A stretch of 64,000 nucleotides of DNA from a virus (lineage: Duplodnaviria > Heunggongvirae > Uroviricota > Caudoviricetes): positions 27,395 to 91,394 of IMG/VR virus record IMGVR_UViG_3300036760_000193; one strand, written 5' to 3'. The position numbers were made by a program, and so were the translations under genes. Positions 6,287 through 45,698 of the stretch are shown here, one piece after another (positions within the stretch are counted from its first letter, which is position 1; the number at the start of each line of letters is the position of its first letter). Below the pieces are notes generated by a model that was not told the DNA's origin, searched no databases, and saw nothing but the letters and a program-made list of their open reading frames with translations.

Positions 6287-6745
6287 TTAGTCAATCCTCC
6301 CTGGTGATTCGTATTTAGCTCTCAATCTCAAATATTCTTCTGATTCTCGCTTAACTTGTTCCTCGGCATCTTTCATCGCTTTCTCTTGCTTAAGCTGTTC
6401 TTGCTTTGTTTTGTAAGCTTCCATCCCTTCTATGAACAACGGATTGGAAAACAGGCGGGTTAGCCAACCGCCCACGTCAGAAACATCCCATTCCTTCTCG
6501 TTTCGTTCTGTTGGCACCGACACATCTTGAAACTCTACATATTCTTGTTCTAAAATGTCGTACTCAGATAGAGGAAATCCCCAAATACGATTAGGAACCA
6601 ATCGTTCGATAGCTCTATTCTCAAGGTCGTATAAAGTATCTGCTATAATTGTAATACGATCTAAGTCATCGTAGCAACTGCCACAATGTTGTTTCGGCAT
6701 TATCTGAAGCCGGTACTTAGTCTTGAGTTGGGCTGTTACTTCCAT
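6287..6745 (-). CDS. hypothetical protein (152 aa)
   Basis: Minus ORF. Confidence 0.45.
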   Translation of the reverse strand: MEVTAQLKTKYRLQIMPKQHCGSCYDDLDRITIIADTLYDLENRAIERLVPNRIWGFPLSEYDILEQEYVEFQDVSVPTERNEKEWDVSDVGGWLTRLFSNPLFIEGMEAYKTKQEQLKQEKAMKDAEEQVKRESEEYLRLRAKYESPGRID

Positions 6746-7232
6746 TTGTTTCCTCCGTAGGCGATGGAGCTACTGGCGTACACTCCATCACATCATTTAT
6801 AACAGGTCGCGGTCGTCTCAATATTGTGTACTTGATAAAGTTCTTTGTATCGTGTAAAAACCAATGGATTCGGCTTCGCAGTTTCCAATGCCATTTGCTG
6901 TTCCGCTCATCGACATCATACCAAGTCTTCCCCCCATCTTCTGAGAATTTGGCGGGATCGCGGCGGTTCTGCCATACTCCCTTACCATTAAAATATTGTG
7001 TCACTTCCATCCATTCTGTAGGATTAGAGGATATGGGTGTCAAGGTTCTGAACCTCGCTACCCTATTAAAGATTTCCAAGGTCATGCCAGCTGAGAATCC
7101 TGAGTGTCCCTGGGCTGCAAACTTTTCTACCAATTCCAATACTGCATTGCCAAGCATTCCGTCATAGTCGCTGTCTTTGTCAAACAGTCCAGCGCGAGTC
7201 AATTCTTCTTTTGCGTGTTGTACTAAGCTCAT
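6717..7232 (-). CDS. hypothetical protein (171 aa)
   Basis: Minus ORF. Confidence 0.45.
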   Translation of the reverse strand: MSLVQHAKEELTRAGLFDKDSDYDGMLGNAVLELVEKFAAQGHSGFSAGMTLEIFNRVARFRTLTPISSNPTEWMEVTQYFNGKGVWQNRRDPAKFSEDGGKTWYDVDERNSKWHWKLRSRIHWFLHDTKNFIKYTILRRPRPVINDVMECTPVAPSPTEETNGSNSPTQD

Positions 7233-13699: not shown

Positions 13700-13952
13700 T
13701 TTCTTTCTCCAATAGGTTTATAGTGAATGTTTTTCCTAACAGTTTTTTAATTTCATCCCCCTGATATTCAAGTGGAGCGAAAGTTCTCAGTACGCCTTTG
13801 ATTCTACTCTCTACAGTCTTTAGATCAGTTACGAAAAGCATATCACGCTTAATAGTCTTGAACCACCGCCGATCAAGATTCTCTACAACATAGTAAATAA
13901 ATGATCCGTCACCCTGTTGCACAACTTTTTCTACTCTTAATTGAATTCTCAT
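13686..13952 (-). CDS. hypothetical protein (88 aa)
   Basis: Minus ORF. Confidence 0.4.
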   Translation of the reverse strand: MRIQLRVEKVVQQGDGSFIYYVVENLDRRWFKTIKRDMLFVTDLKTVESRIKGVLRTFAPLEYQGDEIKKLLGKTFTINLLEKENGLR

Positions 13953-14584
13953 ATCAATTTCTCCAATTCCGCCCGAACTCTTTCAGGCGTAGTTTTTTCG
14001 TATGCTTCATTGAAAAGTGTTCGACAAGCGACAAGACTTTTAGGGTCGGGACGGTATCCCTTAGCAAGGAACCGATAGAAACGAAATACGCGAAGATAGT
14101 CTTCTTTGATACGGTCTTCGGGGCGTCCAATGAATCTAAGGATTTTCTTTTCAAGGTCTTCGGTTCCCTGTGATAAAGGATCAAGGATGGTTCCGTCCAA
14201 GCGCATGTAAAGAGCGTTGATGGTAAAATCCCTACGTTTGGCATCCTCTTCCAAAGTGCCAATAGAAACGCTATCAGGCCGTCGGCCATCTGAGTACACA
14301 CCATCTTTGCGATAGTTAGCAACTTCATACTGTTCGTTGTCCTTTGAAATGGAGAGCACCAAGAATGCTTTGCCTGTTGTGCTTACTGCCCATCCAGCCT
14401 CTTTGAAAATCTCTTCGAGTTTATCCATCGGTATGTCCGTAACAAAATCATAATCAGACGGCTCCTTATGTAAGATTGTGTCACGAACGCTTCCTCCAAC
14501 GAGATAATTGTTTTGACTGTATGTGTCCAGGATCATGAATATCTGGACAAGCTGCATTTGTATTTTAGGGTTTAACAGGTTCAT
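13949..14584 (-). CDS. tRNA nucleotidyltransferase / poly(A) polymerase family head domain (CCA-adding-enzyme-like, 211 aa)
   Basis: GGSVRD...DYDF...RRDFTINA motifs of the Pol-beta nucleotidyltransferase (PolyA_pol head) family. Confidence 0.65.
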   Translation of the reverse strand: MNLLNPKIQMQLVQIFMILDTYSQNNYLVGGSVRDTILHKEPSDYDFVTDIPMDKLEEIFKEAGWAVSTTGKAFLVLSISKDNEQYEVANYRKDGVYSDGRRPDSVSIGTLEEDAKRRDFTINALYMRLDGTILDPLSQGTEDLEKKILRFIGRPEDRIKEDYLRVFRFYRFLAKGYRPDPKSLVACRTLFNEAYEKTTPERVRAELEKLI

Positions 14585-15209
14585 GAATTGGTTTTGGGTA
14601 CGGCAATATTTTGTAATGAAGCTTCTTCAACAACTCTTTCTTCCGCTTCCTATTACAATTAAAGTAAACGTATCGGTGCTTCTGTGGTCTTTCCACCCAG
14701 ATCACTTCATCGCCCCACTTCTCATTGATCTCTTTGTTCGTCATGTGCTGAGCGAACGTAGTGTGATGCAAAGATGGGTTCGCTTTCAACTTAGGGTCTT
14801 TGAACTTTGTGGATAGTCCTGTGTAAAACCAATTGGTCGCCTGATATACAAAACCAACATGCCCCCTGCTTGCATCAGCAAAACTTACAATTATTTCTTT
14901 ATCAAGCTTCTTCAACGTATACCCAATCAAAAAACTTTCACAGTTACGTGGTAAGCTATCTTCAAGCCAAAGACGTGTCAACTCATATACATTACTGGCT
15001 TCTTCTTCTCCACAAACACCACGTCGTAGTGTGGTGGACGCGCTTACCCCATAAATGATAACCCCGACTAATTCTTCTGTGATTTTTCTGAATAGACCAA
15101 ATGCTTTGGAGCATGGTGCTTTACGGTGCAAGTAATGGTTTTTTACAACCATGTCTTGTGCGATAGGCTTTTCGACTGGTAGAATCTCGAAGTCTTCGGC
15201 AATACTCAT
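14565..15209 (-). CDS. Mom-like / GNAT-fold putative modification enzyme, paralog C
   Basis: Shares HYxH, PRNxESF, SFADxxxGHVGFVYQATNW and KHRYVY motifs with 17018..17581 and 17751..18338. Confidence 0.5.
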   Translation of the reverse strand: MSIAEDFEILPVEKPIAQDMVVKNHYLHRKAPCSKAFGLFRKITEELVGVIIYGVSASTTLRRGVCGEEEASNVYELTRLWLEDSLPRNCESFLIGYTLKKLDKEIIVSFADASRGHVGFVYQATNWFYTGLSTKFKDPKLKANPSLHHTTFAQHMTNKEINEKWGDEVIWVERPQKHRYVYFNCNRKRKKELLKKLHYKILPYPKPIHEPVKP

Positions 15210-17618: not shown

Positions 17619-17692
17619 TGGAGCGGAGGGGTCGGGATCGAACCGCCATCCTGTTCGGGAAGAACAGATTTTTCCACTTAAACTACCTCCGC
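17619..17692 (-). tRNA. tRNA, probably tRNA-Gly(UCC)
   Basis: 74 nt GCGGAGG...CCTCCGC-T-CCA. 7-bp acceptor stem, TTCGATC T-loop, 5-bp anticodon stem CTGTT/AACAG with loop CTTCCCG (anticodon UCC), CCA encoded. Confidence 0.7.
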
Positions 17693-17725: not shown

Positions 17726-17754
17726 ATTATACGAAATATTTTCATTGATCTTAA
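17726..17754 (-). promoter_or_regulatory. candidate promoter upstream of the tRNA (-10 TATAAT, weak -35 TTAAGA, 17-nt spacer)
   Basis: Minus strand TTAAGA-N17-TATAAT about 35 nt upstream of the tRNA 5' end. Confidence 0.3.
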
Positions 17755-18338
17755 GAACTTCTAGTGAATTCATACAAATAAATTACCTTGCCTTTCTGTT
17801 CCTTGTAGAACGCTTCTCCAGTTTCCAACGCCGCTTTAACTCTGGCGGCGAACGGTTTCAATCGCCCTTTATACTTTGTTCTAATAGCTTTATCATGGTA
17901 CTTCTTACCATTCCACAAGATCACTCGTCCCTTGGCGGTTTCCCCAAGGCGTTTGAAATTGCTGGCTTGATAGATAATCCCCTGATGGTTATAATTAGTA
18001 TCCGCATAGGAAATGATACGTTTGATCTGAGTATTTTTCTTAATCCAAAGAAGGCATTTGGATATAAAGAATGATTCAGTATTCTTGGGGGTGTCATCAA
18101 TACAACACAACCTGCGAAGTTCTATAAGGTCTTCTTCTTTTTCAGCGTACTTCTTCCAGACATTAGCCATCGCCAATCCGCCAAATAGCGCAGCCCCTAT
18201 CAATTGTTCACCATTACGTAGGGCAAAACAATAAGAAAGCCGCAACCCATTCACCGATTTAGAATAATGCCATTGTTCTACGAAGGGTCGCAACTTATCT
18301 ATTGTTGATAATTCAACTCGGAAAGCCTTAACATCCAT
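17751..18338 (-). CDS. Mom-like / GNAT-fold putative modification enzyme, paralog B
   Basis: Motifs WHYSKS, ELRRL, TPKNTESFF, SYADTNYNHQGIIYQASNF. Confidence 0.5.
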   Translation of the reverse strand: MDVKAFRVELSTIDKLRPFVEQWHYSKSVNGLRLSYCFALRNGEQLIGAALFGGLAMANVWKKYAEKEEDLIELRRLCCIDDTPKNTESFFISKCLLWIKKNTQIKRIISYADTNYNHQGIIYQASNFKRLGETAKGRVILWNGKKYHDKAIRTKYKGRLKPFAARVKAALETGEAFYKEQKGKVIYLYEFTRSS

Positions 18339-22751: not shown

Positions 22752-24017
22752 TTACTTCACGTCTTTCAAGTGAAGGAGTGCTTTCTTCTCATTGGCAACT
22801 TTGAACGTGCTCAACTGCTTTTGCATGTCGCGGATCAATGCCTGTTGCTCACGTAGAAGCTTCTCTTGTTGTTCAAGCATCCGACGGGCTTCCGTGTCTT
22901 TCGGCACGCCCACCGTGGAGTTGCGGTTAGAACTGTTCTCGATCAACTTCTCTTCATAGCTCTTACCCAATTTGTAACCAAGAACCAAGCCAATAGAATC
23001 ATTGTGCTTGCGACGAGTGTCGTAGTTATCAAACAGGTTCAACTGCCATTTGCGAGAATCCAACAAGCGAACCGCACCACCAAGGATGTACTTCGTCTGT
23101 CCAAGTTTATGCACTTCGTTTTCCAGGCCATTCACACGACTGTCCAATCCGTCCACACGGCTGTTGGTGTTGTTGATGTTATTCTGGAGGACTTCATCGC
23201 CAGCTTTGCGCTCAGTGGTCTCGTTGTTGATCTTCGAGTCCAAGAGATTATCGCCGTCGATTCTGCTGTTGGTTTCATTGTTGATGTTGTTTTGAAGCAC
23301 GTTGTCACCAGCGATACGACTGTTCGTTTCGTTGGTAATGTCTGTGCCCAAGTTTGTGATGCTGGTCGAATGATTGTCCAACGTGTTATGAACGTCAGTC
23401 AAGTCAGTCGAGTTGTTGTTAACTGTATCTGTAAGGTTACTGATGTTGGTTTCATTGGTATTGCCTTGGGTAGTTTTGAGTCCACTCAAGTCAAGAGTCG
23501 CATCGGCACCACTTCCTGATACCGTCACGCCTTCTCCAACTACATCAACATGTCCCGCGCCTGAAACGCTTCCATCGACTCCACCGTTCGCGGTTAGATT
23601 TCCAACCACGCCAGTTTCGCCTTGAACTCCTTGATCTCCCTGGACGCCCTGCACTCCTTGGATTCCCTGATCGCCTTGAACTCCCTGCGCTCCAGTTTCT
23701 CCCTGGGCACCTTGAATTCCTTGCTCACCTTGAACGCCTTGGATACCTTGAACTCCAGAGGCACCAGTGGCTCCCGTCGCTCCGATTGATCCCGTCGCGC
23801 CAGTGGCTCCTGTTGCACCAGTAGCACCTGTCAATCCAGGAATAGAACTAGGCGCAGCCCATGTTCCTTCTGAATTACCAGATACTCCATTGTAATACAG
23901 GATATCTCCTGCTGCTGGTGTTTGCCCATTTGTCAGTGTGTCTGTTACGTTGTTGGCTCTCACGAAAGAGGTTAATCCCCCGATGAGAATTGCTGCTATT
24001 GCGATTAGCTTCTTCAT
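22752..24017 (-). CDS. secreted collagen-like triple-helix repeat protein with C-terminal tandem repeats (421 aa)
   Basis: Signal peptide MKKLIAIAAILIGGLTSFVRA; about 30 Gly-X-Y triplets; 17-aa NNINNETNSRIDGDN repeats; AAGGAGA SD. Confidence 0.7.
   Translation of the reverse strand: MKKLIAIAAILIGGLTSFVRANNVTDTLTNGQTPAAGDILYYNGVSGNSEGTWAAPSSIPGLTGATGATGATGATGSIGATGATGASGVQGIQGVQGEQGIQGAQGETGAQGVQGDQGIQGVQGVQGDQGVQGETGVVGNLTANGGVDGSVSGAGHVDVVGEGVTVSGSGADATLDLSGLKTTQGNTNETNISNLTDTVNNNSTDLTDVHNTLDNHSTSITNLGTDITNETNSRIAGDNVLQNNINNETNSRIDGDNLLDSKINNETTERKAGDEVLQNNINNTNSRVDGLDSRVNGLENEVHKLGQTKYILGGAVRLLDSRKWQLNLFDNYDTRRKHNDSIGLVLGYKLGKSYEEKLIENSSNRNSTVGVPKDTEARRMLEQQEKLLREQQALIRDMQKQLSTFKVANEKKALLHLKDVK
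23150..23345 (-). repeat. about 51-nt tandem repeats inside the collagen-like gene
   Basis: Repeated ctgttggtgttgttgatgtt...tcgccagc units encoding the NNINNETNSRI(A/D)GDN repeats. Confidence 0.5.
23567..23837 (-). repeat. 9-nt periodic repeat encoding the collagen-like Gly-X-Y region
   Basis: Periodicity is visible in the DNA (ccttg(g/a)a(t/c)(a/t)cc...). Confidence 0.6.
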
Positions 24018-27162: not shown

Positions 27163-27564
27163 TTATTTTGGCTCAGGTATGTCCAAACAAGTTAGGTCAA
27201 CTTGATAAAGCAAATTGTACCTGCGAATCATAATCATGCTGGCACTTCCATGACCCGGGTTATGTGAAGCACACACTGTTCCTATCGCGGCACCTGTACC
27301 ATCCAAGAACTCAACAGCCAACAACCGTGCGTTATATGGCGTCCCGTCTGGTGCAGTGCCTTTGATCTCTGGCTCTACTATCGCTTTGACTGGCAACCCA
27401 GGAAGGTCTATCCGAACTGATACGCTTGACACTTCGACACCTGGAGCAATTGCCGTGGCGTTCTTATCATTGTTCTTCGTTACATAAACTTGCCACATCA
27501 CTTCTGCACTGGCCGTACTGCACAAAAGCCCTATGTTTAGTAACAAATATAGGTATGTTTTCAT
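27163..27564 (-). CDS. putative secreted protein or lipoprotein (133 aa)
   Basis: Signal peptide MKTYLYLLLNIGLLCSTASA with a possible lipobox GLLC. Confidence 0.5.
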   Translation of the reverse strand: MKTYLYLLLNIGLLCSTASAEVMWQVYVTKNNDKNATAIAPGVEVSSVSVRIDLPGLPVKAIVEPEIKGTAPDGTPYNARLLAVEFLDGTGAAIGTVCASHNPGHGSASMIMIRRYNLLYQVDLTCLDIPEPK

Positions 27565-27800: not shown

Positions 27801-28017
27801 GGTTAGCGATCTCTAAATCTGATAGGTCTGTCCACACATGCAACTCATCTATCATAAAGTCCAATGTAACATACCCACCCACAACGTAACTTTCCACCAA
27901 CTCAAGCATGTACGTATATGCACTGTCCGTTATTTCACTGGTTGTGTTGTCATACCGTATGTATGTATGCTCTGCTACAAGTTCGTCAAATACTTTCTTG
28001 AGGTGGTTGCTGTTCAT
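27754..28017 (-). CDS. hypothetical acidic protein (87 aa)
   Basis: Minus ORF. Confidence 0.4.
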   Translation of the reverse strand: MNSNHLKKVFDELVAEHTYIRYDNTTSEITDSAYTYMLELVESYVVGGYVTLDFMIDELHVWTDLSDLEIANLVDELECIKEEREGD

Positions 28018-28870
28018 TCTTAAACTTCGTCAACTCTTCTGTCAACTTAAACTTGGCGTACTCTTTGGCCTTCTCATACACTGCGGTCGCATCAGCTTGA
28101 TTAGGATTAAATATGTCAATAGGAATCAACAAGCTGGGCTTTAGGTGAATTATCTTGGTCTTGCCGATCATGTCAGGCCACACTTCGGATTCGTGCATGG
28201 CAAACACTCGACGGATGATCTCAAGGATTGGTAGCTTCTCGTTCTCTAGGTAATGGTCATCTACTGCGACGTGTTCGTGGCTAAAGTTACTGACGATGAT
28301 TAGATCAAGGTCTGGTTCCACATCTATCAATGCTTGGGGTAGTTTCTCTTTCACCACAGCCCCGTCGATATAATTAATCTTCCCAATCTTCTTGGGCATG
28401 AACAACATAGGAATAGACGTTGATGCCCTCACCTTGTCTGATATGGTTCCTGTATGGAACAACTGTAATTGGTATGTGTCCAGGCTGGTTGCCGCGATAT
28501 ACAATGGGATATTGGTTTTCTCGAATTCATCTTTATCTTTCAAGGAATCTTTCAGGTAAGTTTCAAGTTTGTCACCAACCACAAAGCCTGTGAAGTTCTT
28601 GGCCTTTTTGATTATAAATTCATAGAGAAGACGCCAACGTGGTTGAAGGTCAATGAACTCTTCTACTTTAAGGGATACCATCTTGCGGTACATCGTTGTC
28701 TTGCTCAAGCCGCAAGCGTAGAAGGCGGCAATGATGCTACCTGCGGATGCCCCCAAGATTACATCTGGCTTAATACTCAATCCTTCTAACTCATCCAGGG
28801 CGGCAACGATCCCCGTGTGCCCGTAAACTCCCTTAAGGGAACCACCAATCAGAATCAGCCCCACCTTCAT
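27986..28870 (-). CDS. patatin-like phospholipase (294 aa)
   Basis: Gly-rich oxyanion motif GLILIGGSLKG and the GxSxG serine motif ILGASAGSI near the N-terminus. Confidence 0.65.
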   Translation of the reverse strand: MKVGLILIGGSLKGVYGHTGIVAALDELEGLSIKPDVILGASAGSIIAAFYACGLSKTTMYRKMVSLKVEEFIDLQPRWRLLYEFIIKKAKNFTGFVVGDKLETYLKDSLKDKDEFEKTNIPLYIAATSLDTYQLQLFHTGTISDKVRASTSIPMLFMPKKIGKINYIDGAVVKEKLPQALIDVEPDLDLIIVSNFSHEHVAVDDHYLENEKLPILEIIRRVFAMHESEVWPDMIGKTKIIHLKPSLLIPIDIFNPNQADATAVYEKAKEYAKFKLTEELTKFKNEQQPPQESI

Positions 28871-37687: not shown

Positions 37688-38821
37688 TTATATCTCTTTG
37701 GAACTTCTCACCATCTTGGCCGTGATCGCTGTCACTTCGCGTCTCGACACTAACACTTTGCAATAGGCTGAGGGTAGCTTCGACATAAACGTTGCTATGA
37801 TCTCTCCAGGAGCCTTCTGCATAAACTTTATGATGTTCTCTATTCTGTCATTGGTTGGGCTGTCATTAGCAAACATTTCTGCTGACATTTCAGTAAGAGT
37901 CGCATCCCATTCAGGAATCTTCTGCCCTTGTAGTTTGTGTGACACTTCGTCGTACCTATCAAGAACGTCGATGCCACGTACAGGGCGTTTGTACTCTTCG
38001 TTGATCCACTTCTCCAATGCCACTGCCGCCACATTACCCAAGAATCCCACAGCTACTTCATTAAAGATTTCCTGCGGTATCACTCCAGAGTCCATGTAGT
38101 CTCCCAACATGGTGTATTGGTCTGGTGTGTGTTCCAACTCTAATTCAATCTTCTCTTCATTCACAAGAAGGTTAGGATGCTGGGCAATAAAGCCTCGAAT
38201 CTTCTCATTGATGTCGGCCTTGGTCGCCCATCGCAACCAAATGTCTTCGTTGGTTCTCACCTTGATAACACAGAACCGACGGAACATGGCTTTGTCTAGG
38301 GTCTCGACTTGGTATTGTCCGTTGTCTGGGTTGATCGCGGCCACAATGAACCAACCTTTAGGAAGATTATGTGTATGCAGACGACGCTCTTTTACCAACT
38401 GGAAGATAGCTTGTCGCACATCGGTAGGCGCACGGTTAAGCTCATCCAAGAATAGAATGCCTCTTGTCCCTTCTTCGGGGAACCATTCGGGCTGAGCATG
38501 GGACAACACTTTGTACGCTTTCTTAAAAAGCTTTGAAATCTTATCAAGCAGGAAAGGATAACCAACAAGGTCGGCGGGTTCTTGCGTAGCAAGTCTCAGG
38601 TCTACGAATCCAAAGTTCTCTCGAAGTGTCTCTATATCTTTTGGATTGGTAAGATCAAATGACTTGGTGCCAAAATTGCCAAGCTCCACTGCAAGCTCGT
38701 TCACAACCTGCTCCACGATCTGTGTCTTACCTATTCCCATCTGTCCTACCATGAGAATGCCATGCCTTACTTGCGCTCTAGCACACCGTTTGATTAGTTC
38801 TTTTGCTTGGTCAATCCACAT
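37688..38821 (-). CDS. MoxR-like AAA+ ATPase (AAA_5 family, 377 aa)
   Basis: Walker A GQMGIGKT, Walker B ILFLDELNRA, arginine finger/sensor region. Confidence 0.7.
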   Translation of the reverse strand: MWIDQAKELIKRCARAQVRHGILMVGQMGIGKTQIVEQVVNELAVELGNFGTKSFDLTNPKDIETLRENFGFVDLRLATQEPADLVGYPFLLDKISKLFKKAYKVLSHAQPEWFPEEGTRGILFLDELNRAPTDVRQAIFQLVKERRLHTHNLPKGWFIVAAINPDNGQYQVETLDKAMFRRFCVIKVRTNEDIWLRWATKADINEKIRGFIAQHPNLLVNEEKIELELEHTPDQYTMLGDYMDSGVIPQEIFNEVAVGFLGNVAAVALEKWINEEYKRPVRGIDVLDRYDEVSHKLQGQKIPEWDATLTEMSAEMFANDSPTNDRIENIIKFMQKAPGEIIATFMSKLPSAYCKVLVSRREVTAITAKMVRSSKEI

Positions 38822-38864
38822 ATTTTCCCTCCGATTTATATTGTACGTATTTGTCTTTCAAAAG

Positions 38865-40082
38865 TCAATCCATATTTTGCTGTTTTCTATCCAGCACAAG
38901 AACATCGCCCCAAGGGGCTTTCATATTGGCGTCTATCGTAACCCATAGGGTAGGGTATCGGGGCGCATGGTCAGGAAATGTACCACATAAATCCGTGAAG
39001 TAAACAAGCAAATCTGTCTCCACTCTCTTTTCTGCAATGTGGTCAAAGACGGGCACGAATGATGTACCTCCACGACCTTTGAACTTGGGGTCAACCTTCG
39101 TATGTGGAGTCAGTTTGTAAACCTTCTGCACTTCTGCATCGCACTCAATAATAGTGATCTTGCTCTTGTATGATCTCATAATGCCTTGAATTTCCACCAT
39201 GAAAGCCTGTAAGTCCGCATCGGATACGCTGCCACTGGTGTCTATTGCTACGGTTATAAGAAGCTTGCGGGTCGGAATCTTTCCTTTCTGTGTCATCCCG
39301 AACCGTCTGTTAGGCCACTTCCAACTGTACTTGAAGGATGCCTTCACTCTCAACCCAACCCATTTACGGAGAAGTCGATGCCAAGGTAACACTGGCGGCT
39401 TAAACAACTGGTCAATATCGTCTTGGAGTTTGCCAGGCACTTTACCCTTTAAGCGTTGGGTTTCATCCACCGCTTTCTTAACCGTCTGCCGAATAACCTC
39501 TTCTGCTATGTCTTGGCTGTCCCCTTCTTTGTCTCCCCACTTCCCGTGATTGCCAGGAGCGTCCATGTCGAACTCTCCATGCGTAGAACCATCAGAGTTT
39601 TTGATCGTAACCTTGGTTGTTCCATCACTATTTTGAGAGAATGAAATTTGTTTTTGATGTTGCTTAAGAACATTGTAGTAATACTCGGCTGGTTTGCCCT
39701 TGTGCATTTTCCAATCTGGCGGGTACTTATCCGTAGTGTAAACCCAATCAGGTAGATTCTGAATGTCCTGGTTCACGGCTAGGTCAGCGGCTATGTTCCA
39801 TAGTTCTCTCTGCCGTCCACCCAAGCGGTTCAAATGGTTCTTGATAAGGTGGTGACACTCATGCTCCAAGATAGCTACACGTTGCTTAATATCTGAAAGC
39901 TCTTTCCACTTCTCAGGGTTCCAGTACATTTCTATGTACCCGTTCTTAATCCCCACGGCTGCTGCAAATGGTAGATCAGGTCTAGCGATACGGCGCATCT
40001 GTGTAAGGAGACGGGCGTAGAACACTCCGTCATTTCTCAAAAGGTGTACAACAACCTTTTCGATGTCCTCCATGTCACTCAT
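38865..40082 (-). CDS. VWA-domain protein with an N-terminal HExxH putative metallopeptidase domain (DUF2201-like, 405 aa)
   Basis: HECHH motif in the N-terminal half; MIDAS motif VAIDTSGSV in the C-terminal half. Confidence 0.6.
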   Translation of the reverse strand: MSDMEDIEKVVVHLLRNDGVFYARLLTQMRRIARPDLPFAAAVGIKNGYIEMYWNPEKWKELSDIKQRVAILEHECHHLIKNHLNRLGGRQRELWNIAADLAVNQDIQNLPDWVYTTDKYPPDWKMHKGKPAEYYYNVLKQHQKQISFSQNSDGTTKVTIKNSDGSTHGEFDMDAPGNHGKWGDKEGDSQDIAEEVIRQTVKKAVDETQRLKGKVPGKLQDDIDQLFKPPVLPWHRLLRKWVGLRVKASFKYSWKWPNRRFGMTQKGKIPTRKLLITVAIDTSGSVSDADLQAFMVEIQGIMRSYKSKITIIECDAEVQKVYKLTPHTKVDPKFKGRGGTSFVPVFDHIAEKRVETDLLVYFTDLCGTFPDHAPRYPTLWVTIDANMKAPWGDVLVLDRKQQNMD

Positions 40083-40773
40083 CTGTTAACCTATCCTTGG
40101 TATGTGGCATTTCGTAAAGTGTATCAACCAACTCTGCCAATTTCAACGTGGGCATTTTCTCATGCAGTCTCTCAACAAGTGTTCGTACACGAATAGTTCC
40201 TACTCGTTCTTTCAATTCCACACTTTCTAGCTTCAATGTATCGGTGCAAAGCTTTAATCTATCTTTGAACTCTGGCAATCTCAAACGATAAGCTACAAAG
40301 CAATCATCTGTAATCAATATGGAACTCGCATCACATGACTGAACCTGATAGGTTCCCTTCTCTAAAAATCTACTGCCACTGGGACTGTTGATAAGTTTCT
40401 TTACCAACCGCCCATTCTCATCGTACTTGTTCTCAACATTCTCTACAAGGTTCACTTTATCTCCACTTCGTATCAACGGAAAGGTGTAGTACGGACTCAT
40501 ACCTGTTAGAATTTCTAAAAAGTTGTTCTCAATAAAGTTTGCGCCTTTTTGAGTTAGCTGCATGACGGCCATTTCTTTGTTCTCTACCTTGTCTTTGTAC
40601 ACCACAGCGTAGTTATGTTTCTGAATGTCATCGAAAAAGGATTTCTGAGTGAAGACCTCACCTAGATCGAATATCCCATGCTTGTAAGAATTAAGAAGAA
40701 ACGGAATTGCTGCTGCCGTTAGGTCTTTCTTAACGAAAATGATAGAAATACTATTGGGGGTTTTGGGTTCCAT
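40075..40773 (-). CDS. hypothetical protein (232 aa)
   Basis: Minus ORF. Confidence 0.45.
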   Translation of the reverse strand: MEPKTPNSISIIFVKKDLTAAAIPFLLNSYKHGIFDLGEVFTQKSFFDDIQKHNYAVVYKDKVENKEMAVMQLTQKGANFIENNFLEILTGMSPYYTFPLIRSGDKVNLVENVENKYDENGRLVKKLINSPSGSRFLEKGTYQVQSCDASSILITDDCFVAYRLRLPEFKDRLKLCTDTLKLESVELKERVGTIRVRTLVERLHEKMPTLKLAELVDTLYEMPHTKDRLTDE

Positions 40774-41476
40774 CGACTGATTCTTTGCGCTCTTGAGTGG
40801 CGGCTTTTATAATCTCTCTAAGCTTTTGTTCTAATGAAACAGTGAACTCTTGAAACTTTATATCACCGTGGAAGGATTGGTAAATAACCAAAATATTATC
40901 TAACAGTTCGTCTACTAATCCTTCAAGATAAAGCTGCATGTCCTTTTCATCTTCTTTGTTCAGTTCTTTTCCATATTCGATACTCTTTTCCAAAATGGTT
41001 CTGATGCTTGTTACATAAGAAGAGATCGCATTTTCTAGTTGGGCACTTGGTAGCCCCGTAGACTGAGCACGTTCTAAGAATTGAATACGACCTTCACAAA
41101 ACTCTTTCCAGTATTCTAGCTGTTCTTTGGTGGAACCGCGATCATTATTCAAAACTGAATCAACAATGTTTGCTCCGTGTCGAAACCCCTCTTGCAATGA
41201 AGATGCTGTTTGTCTTTCAATTTCTGCTTCGCGCATTAGATCATCATAATGACGATCAATATATAATTGATAAGTGCCACGGCTGGATGGTATAATGTCA
41301 TTGAAGGTGGGAAACTTCTTTTCAAATTCCGTTTTTGTTTTCACCGCTCCATATCCTACTTTAATGATACTATGCAAAATATCCTTCATGGCCTGTGGAA
41401 GGTCTTCTAATTTAGTATTGTGTATGGGGGCTGGCTCAGGGGCTGGCGGCGGGGTTATTGGCTGTTCTTCATTCAT
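40751..41476 (-). CDS. hypothetical protein with a Pro-rich N-terminus (241 aa)
   Basis: Minus ORF. Confidence 0.45.
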   Translation of the reverse strand: MNEEQPITPPPAPEPAPIHNTKLEDLPQAMKDILHSIIKVGYGAVKTKTEFEKKFPTFNDIIPSSRGTYQLYIDRHYDDLMREAEIERQTASSLQEGFRHGANIVDSVLNNDRGSTKEQLEYWKEFCEGRIQFLERAQSTGLPSAQLENAISSYVTSIRTILEKSIEYGKELNKEDEKDMQLYLEGLVDELLDNILVIYQSFHGDIKFQEFTVSLEQKLREIIKAATQERKESVDGTQNPQ

Positions 41477-42861
41477 TGTAAGTCCTTGTTGGCACGACCT
41501 CGAATGTCTTCCAGGGTCTGTGTTCGTATAATCTCTCCGTTCTCATACACCAATTCCAATAGATCGGTGTGGTGTGACGGGTCTACACTACCTTCACGTA
41601 CTGTCCAAATCTCTCCAGGGTTTGGCTCGACAAGGATGAGACGCCCCGCCTTGCTCTTCTTACCTGGGTCTGTAATGGGATTCTTTGATACAGGAATATG
41701 TTTCCCATCAATTGTAATTTCACTGCACTTCAAAGCGAACTTTTGAGTATCACGGTTCAATTGTTGCAGAAGTGCCCCACCCATTCCAAAAGCAATGTTG
41801 GTTGCGCTATAGCCATCATCCGTGGCGGTCTTAAGAATCTCATTGATACTGTCCTGATTGATTCCATCCCCCTGAATAACTCGAACATTGTTCAGAACTT
41901 TATAGCCTTTGGTATTTACTGTAACACCGAACTTCGTTTCAAGCAATCGCAAGGTTTCCAAAACGATCTCAGGCGGATTGCCAGAGTCAGGACGAATAAT
42001 AACCGTCGCTCCTGAATTTATAACCTCATTCTTAAGAATCTCTCCCCATAAATGCTCAACTGCATTCCATAAATTGTACGAATCAGATACCACAGCCACA
42101 AGGCTACCAGGTTTTGCGAACTGTGTCAACATATTTCTGAAAGCATCTACCTCATGTTCTTTACCCCAAGCAGTGATTGTAGAATGTTCTGCCGCTGGTA
42201 TCGAAAATCCCGCCATGCCAGCTTGATAGTATTTGTTAGCGCACCATACGCCAGCGCATGTATCAGAACCCATGAAGTTAACAAGGTGAGAAGCCCCGCC
42301 AATGGATGCTGACTCTTGGCTCGACACTCCACGGGAACCAAAGTCATGAAGTTTGAAATTGATTTCAGCATCAGGATTGTCTGCGGTCTTTTTCAAATAT
42401 CCATAAATCAATCGTTTGATATGCCAGCTTTGGGTAGCCACAGTGATAGGATACCACATACGCATCAACATGGTCTCGAACCAGGATACCAACCAAAAGC
42501 ATTTAGGGTCTTGGCATTCCACAGTCATCAAAACGTTATGGGTTGGAACTACCAAACCTTCTGGCACTGCTCGAATCCTAAGCGGTATCTTGCCGCCCAA
42601 TTGCTCAACAACATACATCCACCCTTCCAATGGGAATGGTTCCCCATGACCTGCAAAGAAGGCTTGCGCTTCCAATACCATTTCTTTCGTTATACTAACA
42701 GTCAGGTATTTCTGCAAAATATATTGTAACCCAAAGAACACAGTACGATCATACTTTCCCCCACGGCTCTCCACGTATGAATACATACCAGTGGTCTTAG
42801 GTGGGTACTGCAAATGATGGGACGCCTTATACGAGTCTGTGTCAATAATGATGTTGTCCAT
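41473..42861 (-). CDS. nadV: nicotinamide phosphoribosyltransferase (NAMPT/NadV, 462 aa)
   Basis: N-terminal IIDTDSYKASHH (the NAMPT TDSYK motif); length and conserved blocks match NAMPT. Confidence 0.8.
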   Translation of the reverse strand: MDNIIIDTDSYKASHHLQYPPKTTGMYSYVESRGGKYDRTVFFGLQYILQKYLTVSITKEMVLEAQAFFAGHGEPFPLEGWMYVVEQLGGKIPLRIRAVPEGLVVPTHNVLMTVECQDPKCFWLVSWFETMLMRMWYPITVATQSWHIKRLIYGYLKKTADNPDAEINFKLHDFGSRGVSSQESASIGGASHLVNFMGSDTCAGVWCANKYYQAGMAGFSIPAAEHSTITAWGKEHEVDAFRNMLTQFAKPGSLVAVVSDSYNLWNAVEHLWGEILKNEVINSGATVIIRPDSGNPPEIVLETLRLLETKFGVTVNTKGYKVLNNVRVIQGDGINQDSINEILKTATDDGYSATNIAFGMGGALLQQLNRDTQKFALKCSEITIDGKHIPVSKNPITDPGKKSKAGRLILVEPNPGEIWTVREGSVDPSHHTDLLELVYENGEIIRTQTLEDIRGRANKDLQ

Positions 42862-43575
42862 TTATTGCTCCTGGTTTACTTTTAAGAATCGGCTATCGGA
42901 ATTTTCTATGATAACCTTGGCGATCCGACGAATCTCAATTATTTCTTGATTGATACGTTGTTTGGTGATTCCAAATTTCTGTGCAATGAATAGGTTGGTA
43001 GCCTTTGGTGTTCCCGACTTACTGAATGGCATACCGAACAACTCAGGCGCAACCAATACATCTAGGATAAACCCTTGACGTTCTGTCAAACGGGCTTTAA
43101 TGATTGACAGAAGTTGTTCATGTTCAATATTATACGTATTATCTTTCATGGAAAGCATAGTGGAAAGATTCTTAACTTGGCCTCGCTCCGCCGCATTAGC
43201 TTCAATCACACTCTCGTTTATGATTTGCGCTTTAGGCATACGTTTTTTCTGAACGTTCTTCCATGTTCCATCTTTGTAAACATGCCCAGCGGATATTAAC
43301 GCATTCACAATAGATCGGTGAAGAAGCGTATTGAAAAGAGTGCGTCCCGCTTTCGGAAGATGTTTACGTTTCGCTGGATCAAACTTAAAGTTGGGATCAT
43401 AATGTCTTGACACACGAATCAGAACACGAACGGCAATGTTCTCTTTTTCGTCGTCAAACAATACCGATGACTTAAACGACTGTGCTATAGTCAAAGCGTC
43501 TTCATAGTATTTAGAAACTAATTCCCGCTGAGTTGGTGTTAACTCTTGTGGTGTTTCGACGATTTCTTCATTCAT
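42862..43575 (-). CDS. putative sigma-70-family sigma factor-like protein (237 aa)
   Basis: C-terminal QKFGITKQRINQEIIEIRRIAK resembles a sigma region-4.2 HTH. Confidence 0.35.
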   Translation of the reverse strand: MNEEIVETPQELTPTQRELVSKYYEDALTIAQSFKSSVLFDDEKENIAVRVLIRVSRHYDPNFKFDPAKRKHLPKAGRTLFNTLLHRSIVNALISAGHVYKDGTWKNVQKKRMPKAQIINESVIEANAAERGQVKNLSTMLSMKDNTYNIEHEQLLSIIKARLTERQGFILDVLVAPELFGMPFSKSGTPKATNLFIAQKFGITKQRINQEIIEIRRIAKVIIENSDSRFLKVNQEQ

Positions 43576-44537
43576 AAGTCCCCCTTATCTTGTATGCCTT
43601 CATCAATGAAGGTCTCACCTTCCAAGTCGTCGCGGCGACCTTTCGAGTCTTTTTTTCCAAGATGCTGCAACAACGCTGTCCACAAAATCTTGTGAGATTC
43701 ATAAACAAGCTTTAATGTAGCATTGTTTATTGGATAGAACGCCACGTCTTGCAACTCTTCCGTACTTTCTGGATTCCCCCAGGTATGCTTTGCTACAAAA
43801 AACGATGTGATAATACGCTCATCTTTGGTGTATCTCCAATCATTCATCTGAAAACTGCCAACGTAATGCAACGCATCAGCACCCAGGCCAGATACCGTGG
43901 TCTCTTCGTCAAGCTCTCGTACTGCTGCCATCTCCAAGCTTTCATCTGCTGGGTCTACGAACCCACCAGGGAACACCAATGCCCCACCGACAGCCTTGCG
44001 CCCCAACAGAACCTTGTTGCCCTTCACTACAGCAATATCTATCGTCATGTGAAGTCTTGGATATTGGTTTTGCGTCGAATAGATGATCCCCGCTCGAAAG
44101 TCCGAACTGTTACGAATTGTCTTACCAGCGTCTTTACGAATGCTCGTACCAGATACATCGGGGAAGTTCTCGATCTTGCATGTCTTAAGACTTCCATCGT
44201 ACTGCTTCAAAAATGAGTCCTTGCCGCCATATAAACAAACTGTACCCATTGGGAACACTGTACGAATCATAACGTCCAGATTCTTGCTCCACTCTTTATT
44301 GGTTGGTCTGTCCATCAATGGCACCACAATGACATTAGGGAAGTCTGTCTGAATCATCTTAGCACGGCTTGTAAAGTCTAATGGGTCAACCTTCGTACCC
44401 AAGGTGGGAGCGACTCCCAGGAATACCAAAACATTCTTGGCCTCACTGGAAACAAACTCAAGCAGTTTCTTGTGTCCAACGTGAAGCTCTGGCACCTGGA
44501 ACCGCCCGACCACTACCCCAATGTCGTATTTAGTCAT
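43572..44537 (-). CDS. natV: bifunctional NMN adenylyltransferase + Nudix hydrolase (NatV-like)
   Basis: GRFQVPELHVGH (cytidylyltransferase H/TxGH) plus a Nudix box GGFVDPADESLEMAAVRELDEET; start set to ATG 44537 (GGGAGAG SD). Confidence 0.75.
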   Translation of the reverse strand: MTKYDIGVVVGRFQVPELHVGHKKLLEFVSSEAKNVLVFLGVAPTLGTKVDPLDFTSRAKMIQTDFPNVIVVPLMDRPTNKEWSKNLDVMIRTVFPMGTVCLYGGKDSFLKQYDGSLKTCKIENFPDVSGTSIRKDAGKTIRNSSDFRAGIIYSTQNQYPRLHMTIDIAVVKGNKVLLGRKAVGGALVFPGGFVDPADESLEMAAVRELDEETTVSGLGADALHYVGSFQMNDWRYTKDERIITSFFVAKHTWGNPESTEELQDVAFYPINNATLKLVYESHKILWTALLQHLGKKDSKGRRDDLEGETFIDEGIQDKGDL

Positions 44538-45441
44538 TTGATTCTCTCCCGTTATGCGCCCGTTTGATATCAAGAATCCGCCGCAACTGATCGCGGGTTA
44601 ACCCCGACAACTCCAAGCTATAGGTATCATAGTTGATGTTGTATTCAAGCTTCCCCTCTTTGATATAAAAAGATGCACGATTGCCCGTTACATACACATC
44701 TTTCGCTTCTGGAAACTCCACGGCCATCTTTTCTTTAACAACTGTGTCCGTCTCTTTTTGCTGAACTCGCGCTTCATACTTCGACTGCAACTCTTGAACG
44801 AACTCTGTAACCTTGGTATTGATTTTGGTTGCTAGGTCTTTTGTGGTTGGCGTCCAATTCTTCTTGAAGCTGACAGTCCAATCGTCTGAATCAATACGGA
44901 TATACGTTTTGTATCCCGTATGATGATAATGACCGTTACCTTTTAGATTGGCGAACACTCGAATTTTCTTATTGTAAGACGGATGATCTTCGGGGAACAC
45001 TTGAATCTTAATTTCAAAAGCATTTTTTTCCCAGCCATTGTCCTTCACCAATTCATAAACAAATGAATTTTTGACAGCAAATAGACCATCCAACTGATAG
45101 AAAAGCCGTTGAATCACGGCATTGGCTTCTCTCCGCGCTCTCTCATAGGGTGATTGTTTTGGCTCTTCCACTTTTTTCTCCACGACAGGTGGTGGTATGG
45201 GCTTAGCTTCTTCTTCTTTTACAGGATGAATCCCATAGACTCTTGTCAAATTAAATTCTTGAATCAACGCATTGGCCTGGACTGTTCCATGTTCGGATGC
45301 CACGCCACTAAGAACCAAACCCACAATATTATGTGAAAAAGGTCCTTTCTGTCTGATCGCCTTACGAATCTGCTCCCGCGCTTCGTCTAAACTTTCAATC
45401 CCGATTTTCATAAATCCCCCGTTATTTAGGTTCGACTTCAA
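44530..45441 (-). CDS. hypothetical protein (303 aa)
   Basis: Minus ORF. Confidence 0.45.
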   Translation of the reverse strand: MKSNLNNGGFMKIGIESLDEAREQIRKAIRQKGPFSHNIVGLVLSGVASEHGTVQANALIQEFNLTRVYGIHPVKEEEAKPIPPPVVEKKVEEPKQSPYERARREANAVIQRLFYQLDGLFAVKNSFVYELVKDNGWEKNAFEIKIQVFPEDHPSYNKKIRVFANLKGNGHYHHTGYKTYIRIDSDDWTVSFKKNWTPTTKDLATKINTKVTEFVQELQSKYEARVQQKETDTVVKEKMAVEFPEAKDVYVTGNRASFYIKEGKLEYNINYDTYSLELSGLTRDQLRRILDIKRAHNGRESND

Positions 45442-45669: not shown

Positions 45670-45698
45670 ATTATACACCCAAAATGGGGGTTTGTCAA
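45670..45698 (-). promoter_or_regulatory. sigma70-type promoter P10 (TTGACA-17-TATAAT)
   Basis: Plus attata 45670-45675, tgtcaa 45693-45698. Confidence 0.55.

Follow-up and report, generated by a model that had tools for sequence, protein, structure and literature searches.

Introduction

The closest described relatives of the gene pair considered here come from coliphage N4 and from jumbo phages. Chan et al. (2014) listed gp24 (annotated 'unknown') and gp25 ('vWFA domain') among the 14 genes making up the core set of N4-like phages (Schitoviridae), and reported both as middle transcripts in N4. Both are missing from the lists of identified N4 virion proteins. A MoxR AAA+/(metallopeptidase-vWA) chaperone-cochaperone pair has been described in group 2.2 jumbo phages by Iyer, Anantharaman, Krishnan, Burroughs and Aravind (2021, Viruses 13:63), and earlier genome papers had already annotated such pairs. 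The DNA analyzed here, 64,000 nucleotides of a virus (IMG/VR record IMGVR_UViG_3300036760_000193, positions 27,395 to 91,394; this whole stretch is termed the window), encodes a MoxR-class ATPase next to a partner protein with an N-terminal peptidase-like domain and a C-terminal von Willebrand factor A (VWA) domain.

The identity of these parts, a MoxR-class ATPase and a VWA protein with a zincin-type motif, is close to certain. Judged by full-length homology of both proteins, the pair is a phage module of the N4 gp25/gp24 type. In hhalign comparisons the partner aligns with gp25 of coliphage N4 with a probability of 100% (E 6.6e-42, 344 columns), and the ATPase with gp24 with a probability of 99.6% (E 2.8e-24).

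The Gene Pair

Both genes are on the minus strand. The partner (cochaperone) gene, an open reading frame (ORF) of 405 amino acids (aa) at 38865..40082 (-), is the homologue of N4 gp25 and is transcribed first. The gene for the 377-aa MoxR-class (AAA_5) ATPase, the gp24 homologue with a long helical C-terminal region, is second (37688..38821, -). The 43-nt spacer between them (38822..38864, -) has a GGAGG ribosome-binding site before the ATPase start codon, read in aaatcGGAGGgaaaatATG. The start of the partner is placed at Met4 (402 aa) by the Joint Genome Institute (JGI); in an independent Logan assembly, where the sequence is the same, the protein is called at 405 aa. Each protein is 100% identical to a protein of a 193,203-bp JGI metagenome contig, and the source is an uncultured phage with a genome of about 193 kb and a PolA-type polymerase.

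A preliminary description made from the sequence alone had given both ORFs at exactly these coordinates and lengths. Its order, ATPase and then 405-aa protein, holds along the window and is the reverse of the order of transcription. It had also described the first protein as an AAA_5/MoxR-like ATPase with Walker A GQMGIGKT and Walker B ILFLDELNRA, and the second as having an N-terminal putative metallopeptidase domain with HECHH (HExxH) and a C-terminal VWA domain with a DTSGS metal ion-dependent adhesion site (MIDAS) motif. The motifs are present at the residues given below, and the Pfam comparison that it proposed matched AAA_5, DUF2201_N and a VWA-like domain.

The ATPase

Pfam assigns the ATPase to AAA_5 (E 5.5e-8; its 33.4 bits clear the cutoff of 22), with AAA_3 barely at its cutoff (27.5 against 27), and in PHROGs it belongs to phrog_1297, 'ATPase', at 3.5e-53. 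The Walker A motif GQMGIGKT occupies residues 26-33 (38723..38746, -), and ILFLDELNRA, which combines Walker B with an NRA motif, residues 122-131 (38429..38458, -). The sensor-1 asparagine N164 (38330..38332, -) follows strand beta-4 (157-163) in the AlphaFold2 (AF2) model. R182 of an (R)RF motif (38276..38278, -) is the predicted arginine finger, by likeness to the MoxR 'DRF' motif. Conservation was counted over 58 full-length viral homologues. GxxGxGK[TS] is kept in all 58, bar one Ser at position 26, and N164 and R182 are present in every one. Within Walker B, D126 is found in 52/58 and R130 in 54/58, while residue 127 is split between E (14) and D (44). The elements GxxGxGK[TS], D126-[DE]127, N164 and R182 are also invariant in a further ATPase alignment (A2). 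By these motifs the ATPase appears catalytically complete.

The AF2 model of the ATPase (predicted local distance difference test, pLDDT, 93.6) has its nearest folds in the helix-2-insert clade of AAA+ proteins. Foldseek matches with E of about 1e-7 were to NorQ (including 2026 NorQ-NorD complexes), the MoxR-like protein CHU_0153 (2r44), BchI and MCM; other fold neighbors are ComM, sigma-54 activators and dynein. In the model strands 89-95 and 102-108 are paired and short strands occur at 147-152, at the places where the beta-hairpin inserts in helix 2 and ahead of sensor 1 would be expected. The C-terminal residues, about 190 of them, are helical in the model and extend beyond the NorQ coverage.

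Two more specific identities were considered for the ATPase and rejected. A family profile match to midasin (E 3e-27) adds up weak matches to six tandem AAA modules, each scoring 13-20 bits, so it indicates AAA_5 membership only and no special kinship; a single-sequence search of the PDB with the ATPase found nothing. A cobaltochelatase of the CobS/CobT type is also not indicated, since the ATPase has only a partial, weak match to PHROG 249 (2.4e-5, residues 121-187) and the partner matches DUF2201, not CobT. NCBIfam gave nothing meaningful for either protein.

The Partner Protein

The partner has the domain order DUF2201_N, a 'putative metallopeptidase' family (E 6.5e-27, residues 18-261; 39300..40031, -), followed by the 'VWA-like' DUF2201 (E 1.2e-29, residues 276-398; 38889..39257, -). 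Both domains, in this order, are present in all 65/65 aligned homologues. The protein belongs to the DUF2201 family, which is of the COG3864 type ('predicted metal-dependent peptidase'), and to phrog_1314 at 6.8e-83. Residue conservation was followed in two sets, the 65 homologues (down to 36% identity) and 85 viral loci (down to about 28% identity).

In the N-terminal domain the sequence HECHHLIKNH (residues 74-83; 39834..39863, -) forms a predicted Zn-binding and catalytic motif of the type HExxHx4H, with H74, E75, H78 and H83. These four residues, together with D100 and N104, are among those invariant in the 65 homologues. They are nearly as constant in the viral loci: H74, H78, H83 and D100 are each kept in 84 of the 85 and E75 in 83, the exception being N104, which is Asp in 10. 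The third metal ligand is predicted to be H83 or D100, both of which are conserved. The C-terminal domain has the Rossmann-like VWA fold and a complete MIDAS. Its first loop is DTSGS (D281-S285; 39228..39242, -), a GRGGT loop has the MIDAS threonine T340 (39063..39077, -), and the MIDAS aspartate D364 is in an FTD motif (38991..38993, -). D281-T-S-G-S285, G336-R-G-G-T340 and D364 are likewise invariant in the 65 homologues. Among the viral loci, the D, S, G and S of DTSGS are found in 85/85 and T in 83/85; G336, G338, G339 and T340 are found in 85/85 and R337 in 84/85. The metal ligands D281, S283, S285, T340 and D364 are thus all present in 85/85. Given such conservation of the catalytic residues in the two proteins, all three predicted activities, ATP hydrolysis, MIDAS-mediated binding and Zn-dependent hydrolysis, are under purifying selection.

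The AF2 model of the partner has a mean pLDDT of 83.8. Its N-terminal domain consists of two helices, three strands and a long helix with the HExxH motif, and this modeled order of secondary structure fits a zincin. Peptidase families also appear as sub-threshold Pfam matches among the 65 homologues (SprT-like in 34, Peptidase_M48 in 19 and PhageMetallopep in 8), and weak PDB profile matches of the N-terminal domain (E about 0.4) are to the minigluzincin MJ1213 and an M48 peptidase.

Within the peptidase-like domain is a three-stranded insertion (residues 146-172; 39567..39647, -) that has two NSDG(T/S)T repeats. It is followed by an acidic loop of low AF2 confidence (residues 175-185). Weak matches of the insertion to a 'collagen-flanked surface repeat' family occur in 9/65 homologues.

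PHROG 1314 and many RefSeq records label this family 'HNH endonuclease'. There is no HNH family in the partner's Pfam matches, and the 25 families listed as matched most often by the 65 homologues do not include one either. As it is unsupported by HNH profile matches, the label looks like a propagated mis-annotation, and it should be replaced for the DUF2201_N+VWA family in both PHROGs and RefSeq.

Linkage and Distribution

Partner homologues are numerous: 4949 of the 8000 candidates scored had E<=1e-5. ATPase homologues at the same threshold number 277. A pattern scan of IMG/VR gave 512 viral stretches with a relative of the partner, and linkage was counted in the best 80 of the 512. The two genes are almost always linked. 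An ATPase homologue is on the partner's strand in 74/80 loci, mostly within about 1.8 kb; it is downstream of the partner in 60 of these 74, as in the window, and upstream in 14, as in N4. The remaining 6/80 are cases where little sequence is left, with 3 cut <=124 nt downstream of the VWA gene and 3 having only 186-1490 nt of upstream sequence. The homologue counts and the pairing go far past what chance would give.

Searches of cultured-phage records with tblastn detected the partner in 662 and the ATPase in 515, with identities <=32% among the records listed. The cultured N4-like podoviruses with the module infect Escherichia, Klebsiella, Pseudomonas, Vibrio, Achromobacter and roseobacters. 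It is also found in rV5-like myoviruses, in Bacillus phage G, and in Campylobacter, Moorella, Thermus and Rhizobium phages. A nucleotide search found no near-identical DNA among cultured phages, which indicates a phage without a close cultured relative; its PolA-type polymerase is only 30% identical to those of SPO1-like phages, so it belongs to no cultured group. A scan of bacterial genome contigs with a narrower alignment found only 9 loci, mostly on contigs of metagenome-assembled genomes (MAGs), and says little on cellular homologues. A similar Thermodesulfobacteriota MAG contig appeared phage-like. In the N4-like Klebsiella phage Pylas (locus L081, 4099..5968), according to the annotation, an intron with a gene for an HNH homing endonuclease interrupts the ATPase gene of the pair.

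Genomic Context

Of the ORFs of at least 150 aa in the window, 47/50 are on the minus strand. The pair is at the end of a packed gene run that extends from 45441 down to 37688 and in which every junction overlaps or abuts. The order in the run is a 303-aa ORF, a NatV-like NMNAT-Nudix gene (NMNAT, nicotinamide mononucleotide adenylyltransferase), a 237-aa ORF, NadV, a 241-aa ORF, a 232-aa ORF, the partner and the ATPase. A possible promoter of the run, TTGACA-17-TATAAT (45670..45698, -), is located in a 260-nt intergenic gap; it is put forward from the consensus match alone, a 12/12 agreement with sigma-70 that occurs nowhere else in the 10.5 kb scanned. No intergenic terminator-like sites were found along the run. 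Further upstream are genes for a NusG-like protein, primase, ribonucleotide reductase (RNR), thymidylate kinase, dUTPase, the PolA-type polymerase, RNA ligase and SbcCD-like proteins.

Relatives on contigs of 46-183 kb retain the order primase, NusG-like ... partner, ATPase. For N4, Pylas and a Moorella phage, the pair lies between RNA polymerase or dCTP deaminase/dUTPase genes and helicase/DNA polymerase genes, with rII also nearby. There are no capsid or terminase genes among the neighbors here or in the relatives inspected. The sigma-70 consensus, the neighboring genes and the middle transcripts of N4 are circumstantial indications of expression in the early or middle phase together with replication and takeover genes, and the early region in which the preliminary description had put the pair is plausible. 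Overall the gene context weakly favors an early or middle intracellular role over one in virion assembly.

Possible Functions

The preliminary description had suggested that the pair could remodel or proteolytically activate a host or phage target, and a reading of this kind, in which a target is remodeled or proteolytically processed, is the one that the evidence favors. If NorQ/NorD, CbbQ/CbbO, RavA/ViaA and midasin are a guide, the ATPase would form a hexamer. As in characterized MoxR/VWA couples, among them NorQ/NorD and the viral p618/p892 couple described below, the VWA domain of the partner would dock on this hexamer, the MIDAS metal would grip an acidic residue of one specific client, and ATP hydrolysis would pull, twist or strain the partner-client complex. 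The zincin-like domain, as the conserved glutamate of HExxH suggests, would then cleave the client, a neighboring chain or the partner itself. The pair would be a dedicated remodel-and-cleave (chaperone-protease) device and not a metal inserter. Its client, from the gene context, would be a non-virion protein of phage or host in the infected cell, in the early or middle phase. For the whole chain, in which a MoxR motor and a VWA-zincin cochaperone remodel and cleave one specific non-virion client early or midway in infection, a probability of roughly 0.45 seems appropriate.

Several observations weigh against this reading. Whole-model fold searches with the partner returned VWA matches only and no zincin. 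A SprT-like identity of the N-terminal domain was rejected, for hhalign against a genuine SprT-like phage protein aligns 19 residues around HExxH with a probability of 2.4%; since only the active-site helix aligns, a zincin-type motif is claimed here and not SprT membership. The literature on DUF2201_N yielded no family member with demonstrated peptidase activity, and that on DUF2201, phage MoxR, N4 gp24/gp25 and transcriptomics contained annotations and one hypothesis, with no functional experiment on the phage homologues. Most of the distant ATPase homologues have D-D instead of D-E in Walker B. Gene position is itself weak evidence on timing or client. Mid-expressed tail-associated virion genes adjoin the gp24/gp25 homologues in roseophage RPP1 and Pseudomonas phage LIT1, and in a Vibrio phage a head maturation protease is encoded about 3.6 kb from the pair. 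Iyer et al. (2021) in fact favor virion assembly and processing.

Under that proposal, the motor and VWA partner would fold or assemble structural proteins, of the tail or internal/ejected, and the zincin domain would trim them, the pair acting as an assembly chaperone with a maturation peptidase. Iyer et al. made it for the same architecture in jumbo phages by analogy with p618 and p892 from the Acidianus two-tailed virus (ATV), where p618 (MoxR) binds both p892 (VWA) and tail proteins and p892 stimulates the p618 ATPase. Against the analogy, p618 is itself part of the virion, and a peptidase domain is missing from p892. The 'second structural module' beside the RPP1 and LIT1 homologues and the nearby Vibrio phage protease agree with a morphogenetic role, as does core-gene status alongside capsid, portal and terminase in N4-like phages. 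However, the neighbors here and in most loci inspected are genes of replication, nucleotide and NAD metabolism and not structural genes. The N4 homologues, middle transcripts, are absent from the identified virion proteins, and the pair is shared by podo-, myo- and jumbo phages whose tails are unrelated. On balance a function in virion assembly is unlikely, if still to be taken seriously. Insertion of a metal cofactor, with the HExxHx4H metal delivered to a phage or host enzyme and no proteolysis, would follow the precedent of NorQ/NorD, CobS/CobT, BchI/BchD and CoxD/CoxE. The best-characterized MoxR/VWA pairs do insert metals, NorQ is among the closest solved structures, the weak PHROG match mentioned above is to a CobS-type 'porphyrin biosynthesis' family, and metal-dependent enzymes such as RNR are encoded nearby. 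Yet the near-invariant E75 would not be required for metal storage alone, and its retention is the main ground for preferring a hydrolase to a passive metal site. The VWA partners of known inserters have no HExxH domain, the sub-threshold matches go to peptidase families and not to metallochaperones, and no single metalloenzyme is consistently linked to the pair across the phages inspected. A metal inserter is improbable.

The preliminary description had also compared the pair to bacterial conflict systems. As a bacterial-type conflict or defense module on the phage genome, serving superinfection exclusion or acting as a counter-defense effector that destroys a host immunity protein, the pair would resemble the ternary conflict systems with MoxR-vWA couples, which have been reviewed as regulators of bacterial conflict. 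The 64-kb window does contain genes of the counter-defense type, namely a Tad3 homologue, two Mom-family genes and NadV/NatV, and the pair is co-directional and tightly packed with the last of these. The PADLOC models give this analogy no support: the partner has no match, and the ATPase is matched only at the level of the P-loop, by IetA (21.8 bits) and RtcR (16.8 bits). There is no third component of the VMAP or iSTAND-like type, and in more distant relatives the pair is no longer linked to NadV. A core set of a whole phage family with conserved sequence is also unlike the patchy, fast-changing genes of defense and counter-defense. Such a role has the lowest probability of those considered.

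The remodel-and-cleave reading has a bolder extension, in which the module, a MoxR motor with a VWA-zincin subunit, would be a previously unrecognized type of ATP-dependent protease needed for an essential replication or takeover step in N4-like, rV5-like and many large phages. The MIDAS might, for example, capture a DNA-bound or host regulatory protein, which would then be extracted and cleaved, a bacterial-virus counterpart of the SPRTN/Wss1-p97 partnership. This is a speculative proposal with little probability as yet. Few gene sets other than structural and polymerase genes are common to all N4-like phages, and this pair is one of them; the module also turns up in rV5-like, Campylobacter, Bacillus G, Moorella and Thermus phages and in uncultured phages by the hundred. 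Should it prove to be a machine that remodels and cleaves a defined client, the textbook account of infection by several therapeutic phage groups would gain a step, and the ATP-dependent proteases a new architecture.

Other Genes of the Window

Directly upstream of the partner gene in the packed run, the 232-aa ORF (40075..40773, -) overlaps both the 241-aa ORF and the start of the partner gene and has no Pfam or PHROG match. The 241-aa ORF (40751..41476, -), also with no Pfam or PHROG match, is kept in the closest relatives, again upstream of the pair. Its homologues were found by jackhmmer upstream of the VWA gene in loci L001, L002, L004, L083, L084 and L085; it could be a third component or reflect lineage synteny.

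NadV (41473..42861, -; NAMPT_N + NAPRTase, E 8.8e-63) and NatV (43572..44573, -), bifunctional NMNAT-like/Nudix by Pfam, make up a phage NAD+ salvage pair in the same run. We take this pair to resemble the KVP40/NARP2-type pathway that counters NAD-depleting defenses. NadV/NatV is kept in the closest relative and lost in more distant ones. Between the two genes is the 237-aa ORF (42862..43575, -), which has no family match. By eye, its C-terminus (FIAQKFGITKQRINQEIIEIRRIAK) is like a sigma-70 region-4 helix-turn-helix, and the protein may be a phage sigma-like factor.

Elsewhere in the window, a 171-aa ORF (6717..7232, -) has a Pfam match to Tad3, the type I Thoeris inhibitor (E 3.9e-35), and is likely a counter-defense gene. 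Two Mom-family paralogues (14565..15209, -, and 17751..18338, -; E 4e-45 and 6e-31) suggest DNA base modification. Between them are a 344-aa ORF without a family match and tRNA-Gly(TCC) at 17619..17692, and a PolyA_pol-head (CCA-adding-like) nucleotidyltransferase is encoded at 13949..14584. A collagen-like, tail-fiber-like ORF (22752..24017, -), with matches to PHROG tail fiber families (E to 2e-22), occupies a patch of higher G+C content (0.48 vs about 0.42) amid otherwise non-structural genes. A patatin-like phospholipase ORF (E 1e-21) is found at 27986..28870 (-).

Comparison with Known Systems

Among systems in which the pair is viewed as a motor with an adaptor, NorQ/NorD, and likewise CbbQ/CbbO and RavA/ViaA, combine a helix-2-insert motor of the AAA_5 type with an adaptor, encoded next to it, that has a VWA/MIDAS domain. 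Of the solved structures, NorQ and NorD rank among the nearest, and the docking logic is likely common. Seen this way, the module would work as a chaperone couple of the NorQ/NorD type to which a peptidase has been added. In outline, the NorQD cryo-electron microscopy report describes a VWA finger that enters the pore and a motor that remodels a linker. The differences are considerable: an HExxH domain is absent from NorD, NorQ, at about 260 aa, has no counterpart of the 190-aa helical C-terminal region, the job of NorQ/NorD is Fe insertion into NO reductase, and the sequences are marginally similar (E about 3e-4 with a profile). By description, p618 (MoxR) and p892 (VWA) of ATV are alike in being a virus-encoded couple whose partner binds and stimulates the ATPase; they differ in that ATV is an archaeal virus, in the virion location of p618 and in the domain content of p892. 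In midasin (Rea1/MDN1) AAA_5 modules are again combined with a MIDAS domain, and this domain grips a client during ATP hydrolysis. Midasin is, however, a single eukaryotic polypeptide of 4,700-4,900 residues without a peptidase. The zincin peptidases (SprT/WLM-like, M48 and minigluzincins) share HExxHx4H, the strand-then-helix setting and the sub-threshold profile matches, with no significant alignment past the active-site helix.

The pair of Iyer et al. (2021), for which ASV44729.1 and ASV44728.2 are cited examples, has by the paper's description an identical domain architecture. The phages of that group are jumbo phages described as having T4-type genes (e.g., gp40 and gp20/gp21 homologues), whereas the polymerase of the window is of family A, with SPO1-like phages closest. 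In N4, gp25 retains HExxHx4H (as HELWHvgllH), DTSGS, GRGGTS and FTD, and the genes for gp24 and gp25 adjoin, 167 nt apart on the same strand among non-structural genes. The identity of gp24 and gp25 to the window proteins is only about 23% and 30%, the ATPase gene comes first in N4 and the partner gene in the window, and in the window ATPase helix alpha-1 is followed by an extra insertion of about 25 aa. N4 is also a 70-kb podovirus with a virion RNA polymerase, whereas the window comes from a genome of about 193 kb that encodes a PolA-type polymerase. For the role of the module N4 is the better system, and the window instance brings the answer no closer than N4 itself would. Given the match to the N4 gp24/gp25 core genes and the description by Iyer et al. 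(2021), the kind of pair is already known. The window adds a divergent further example, at the level of identity to cultured-phage records given above, with strong constraint on the residues of the three predicted activities.

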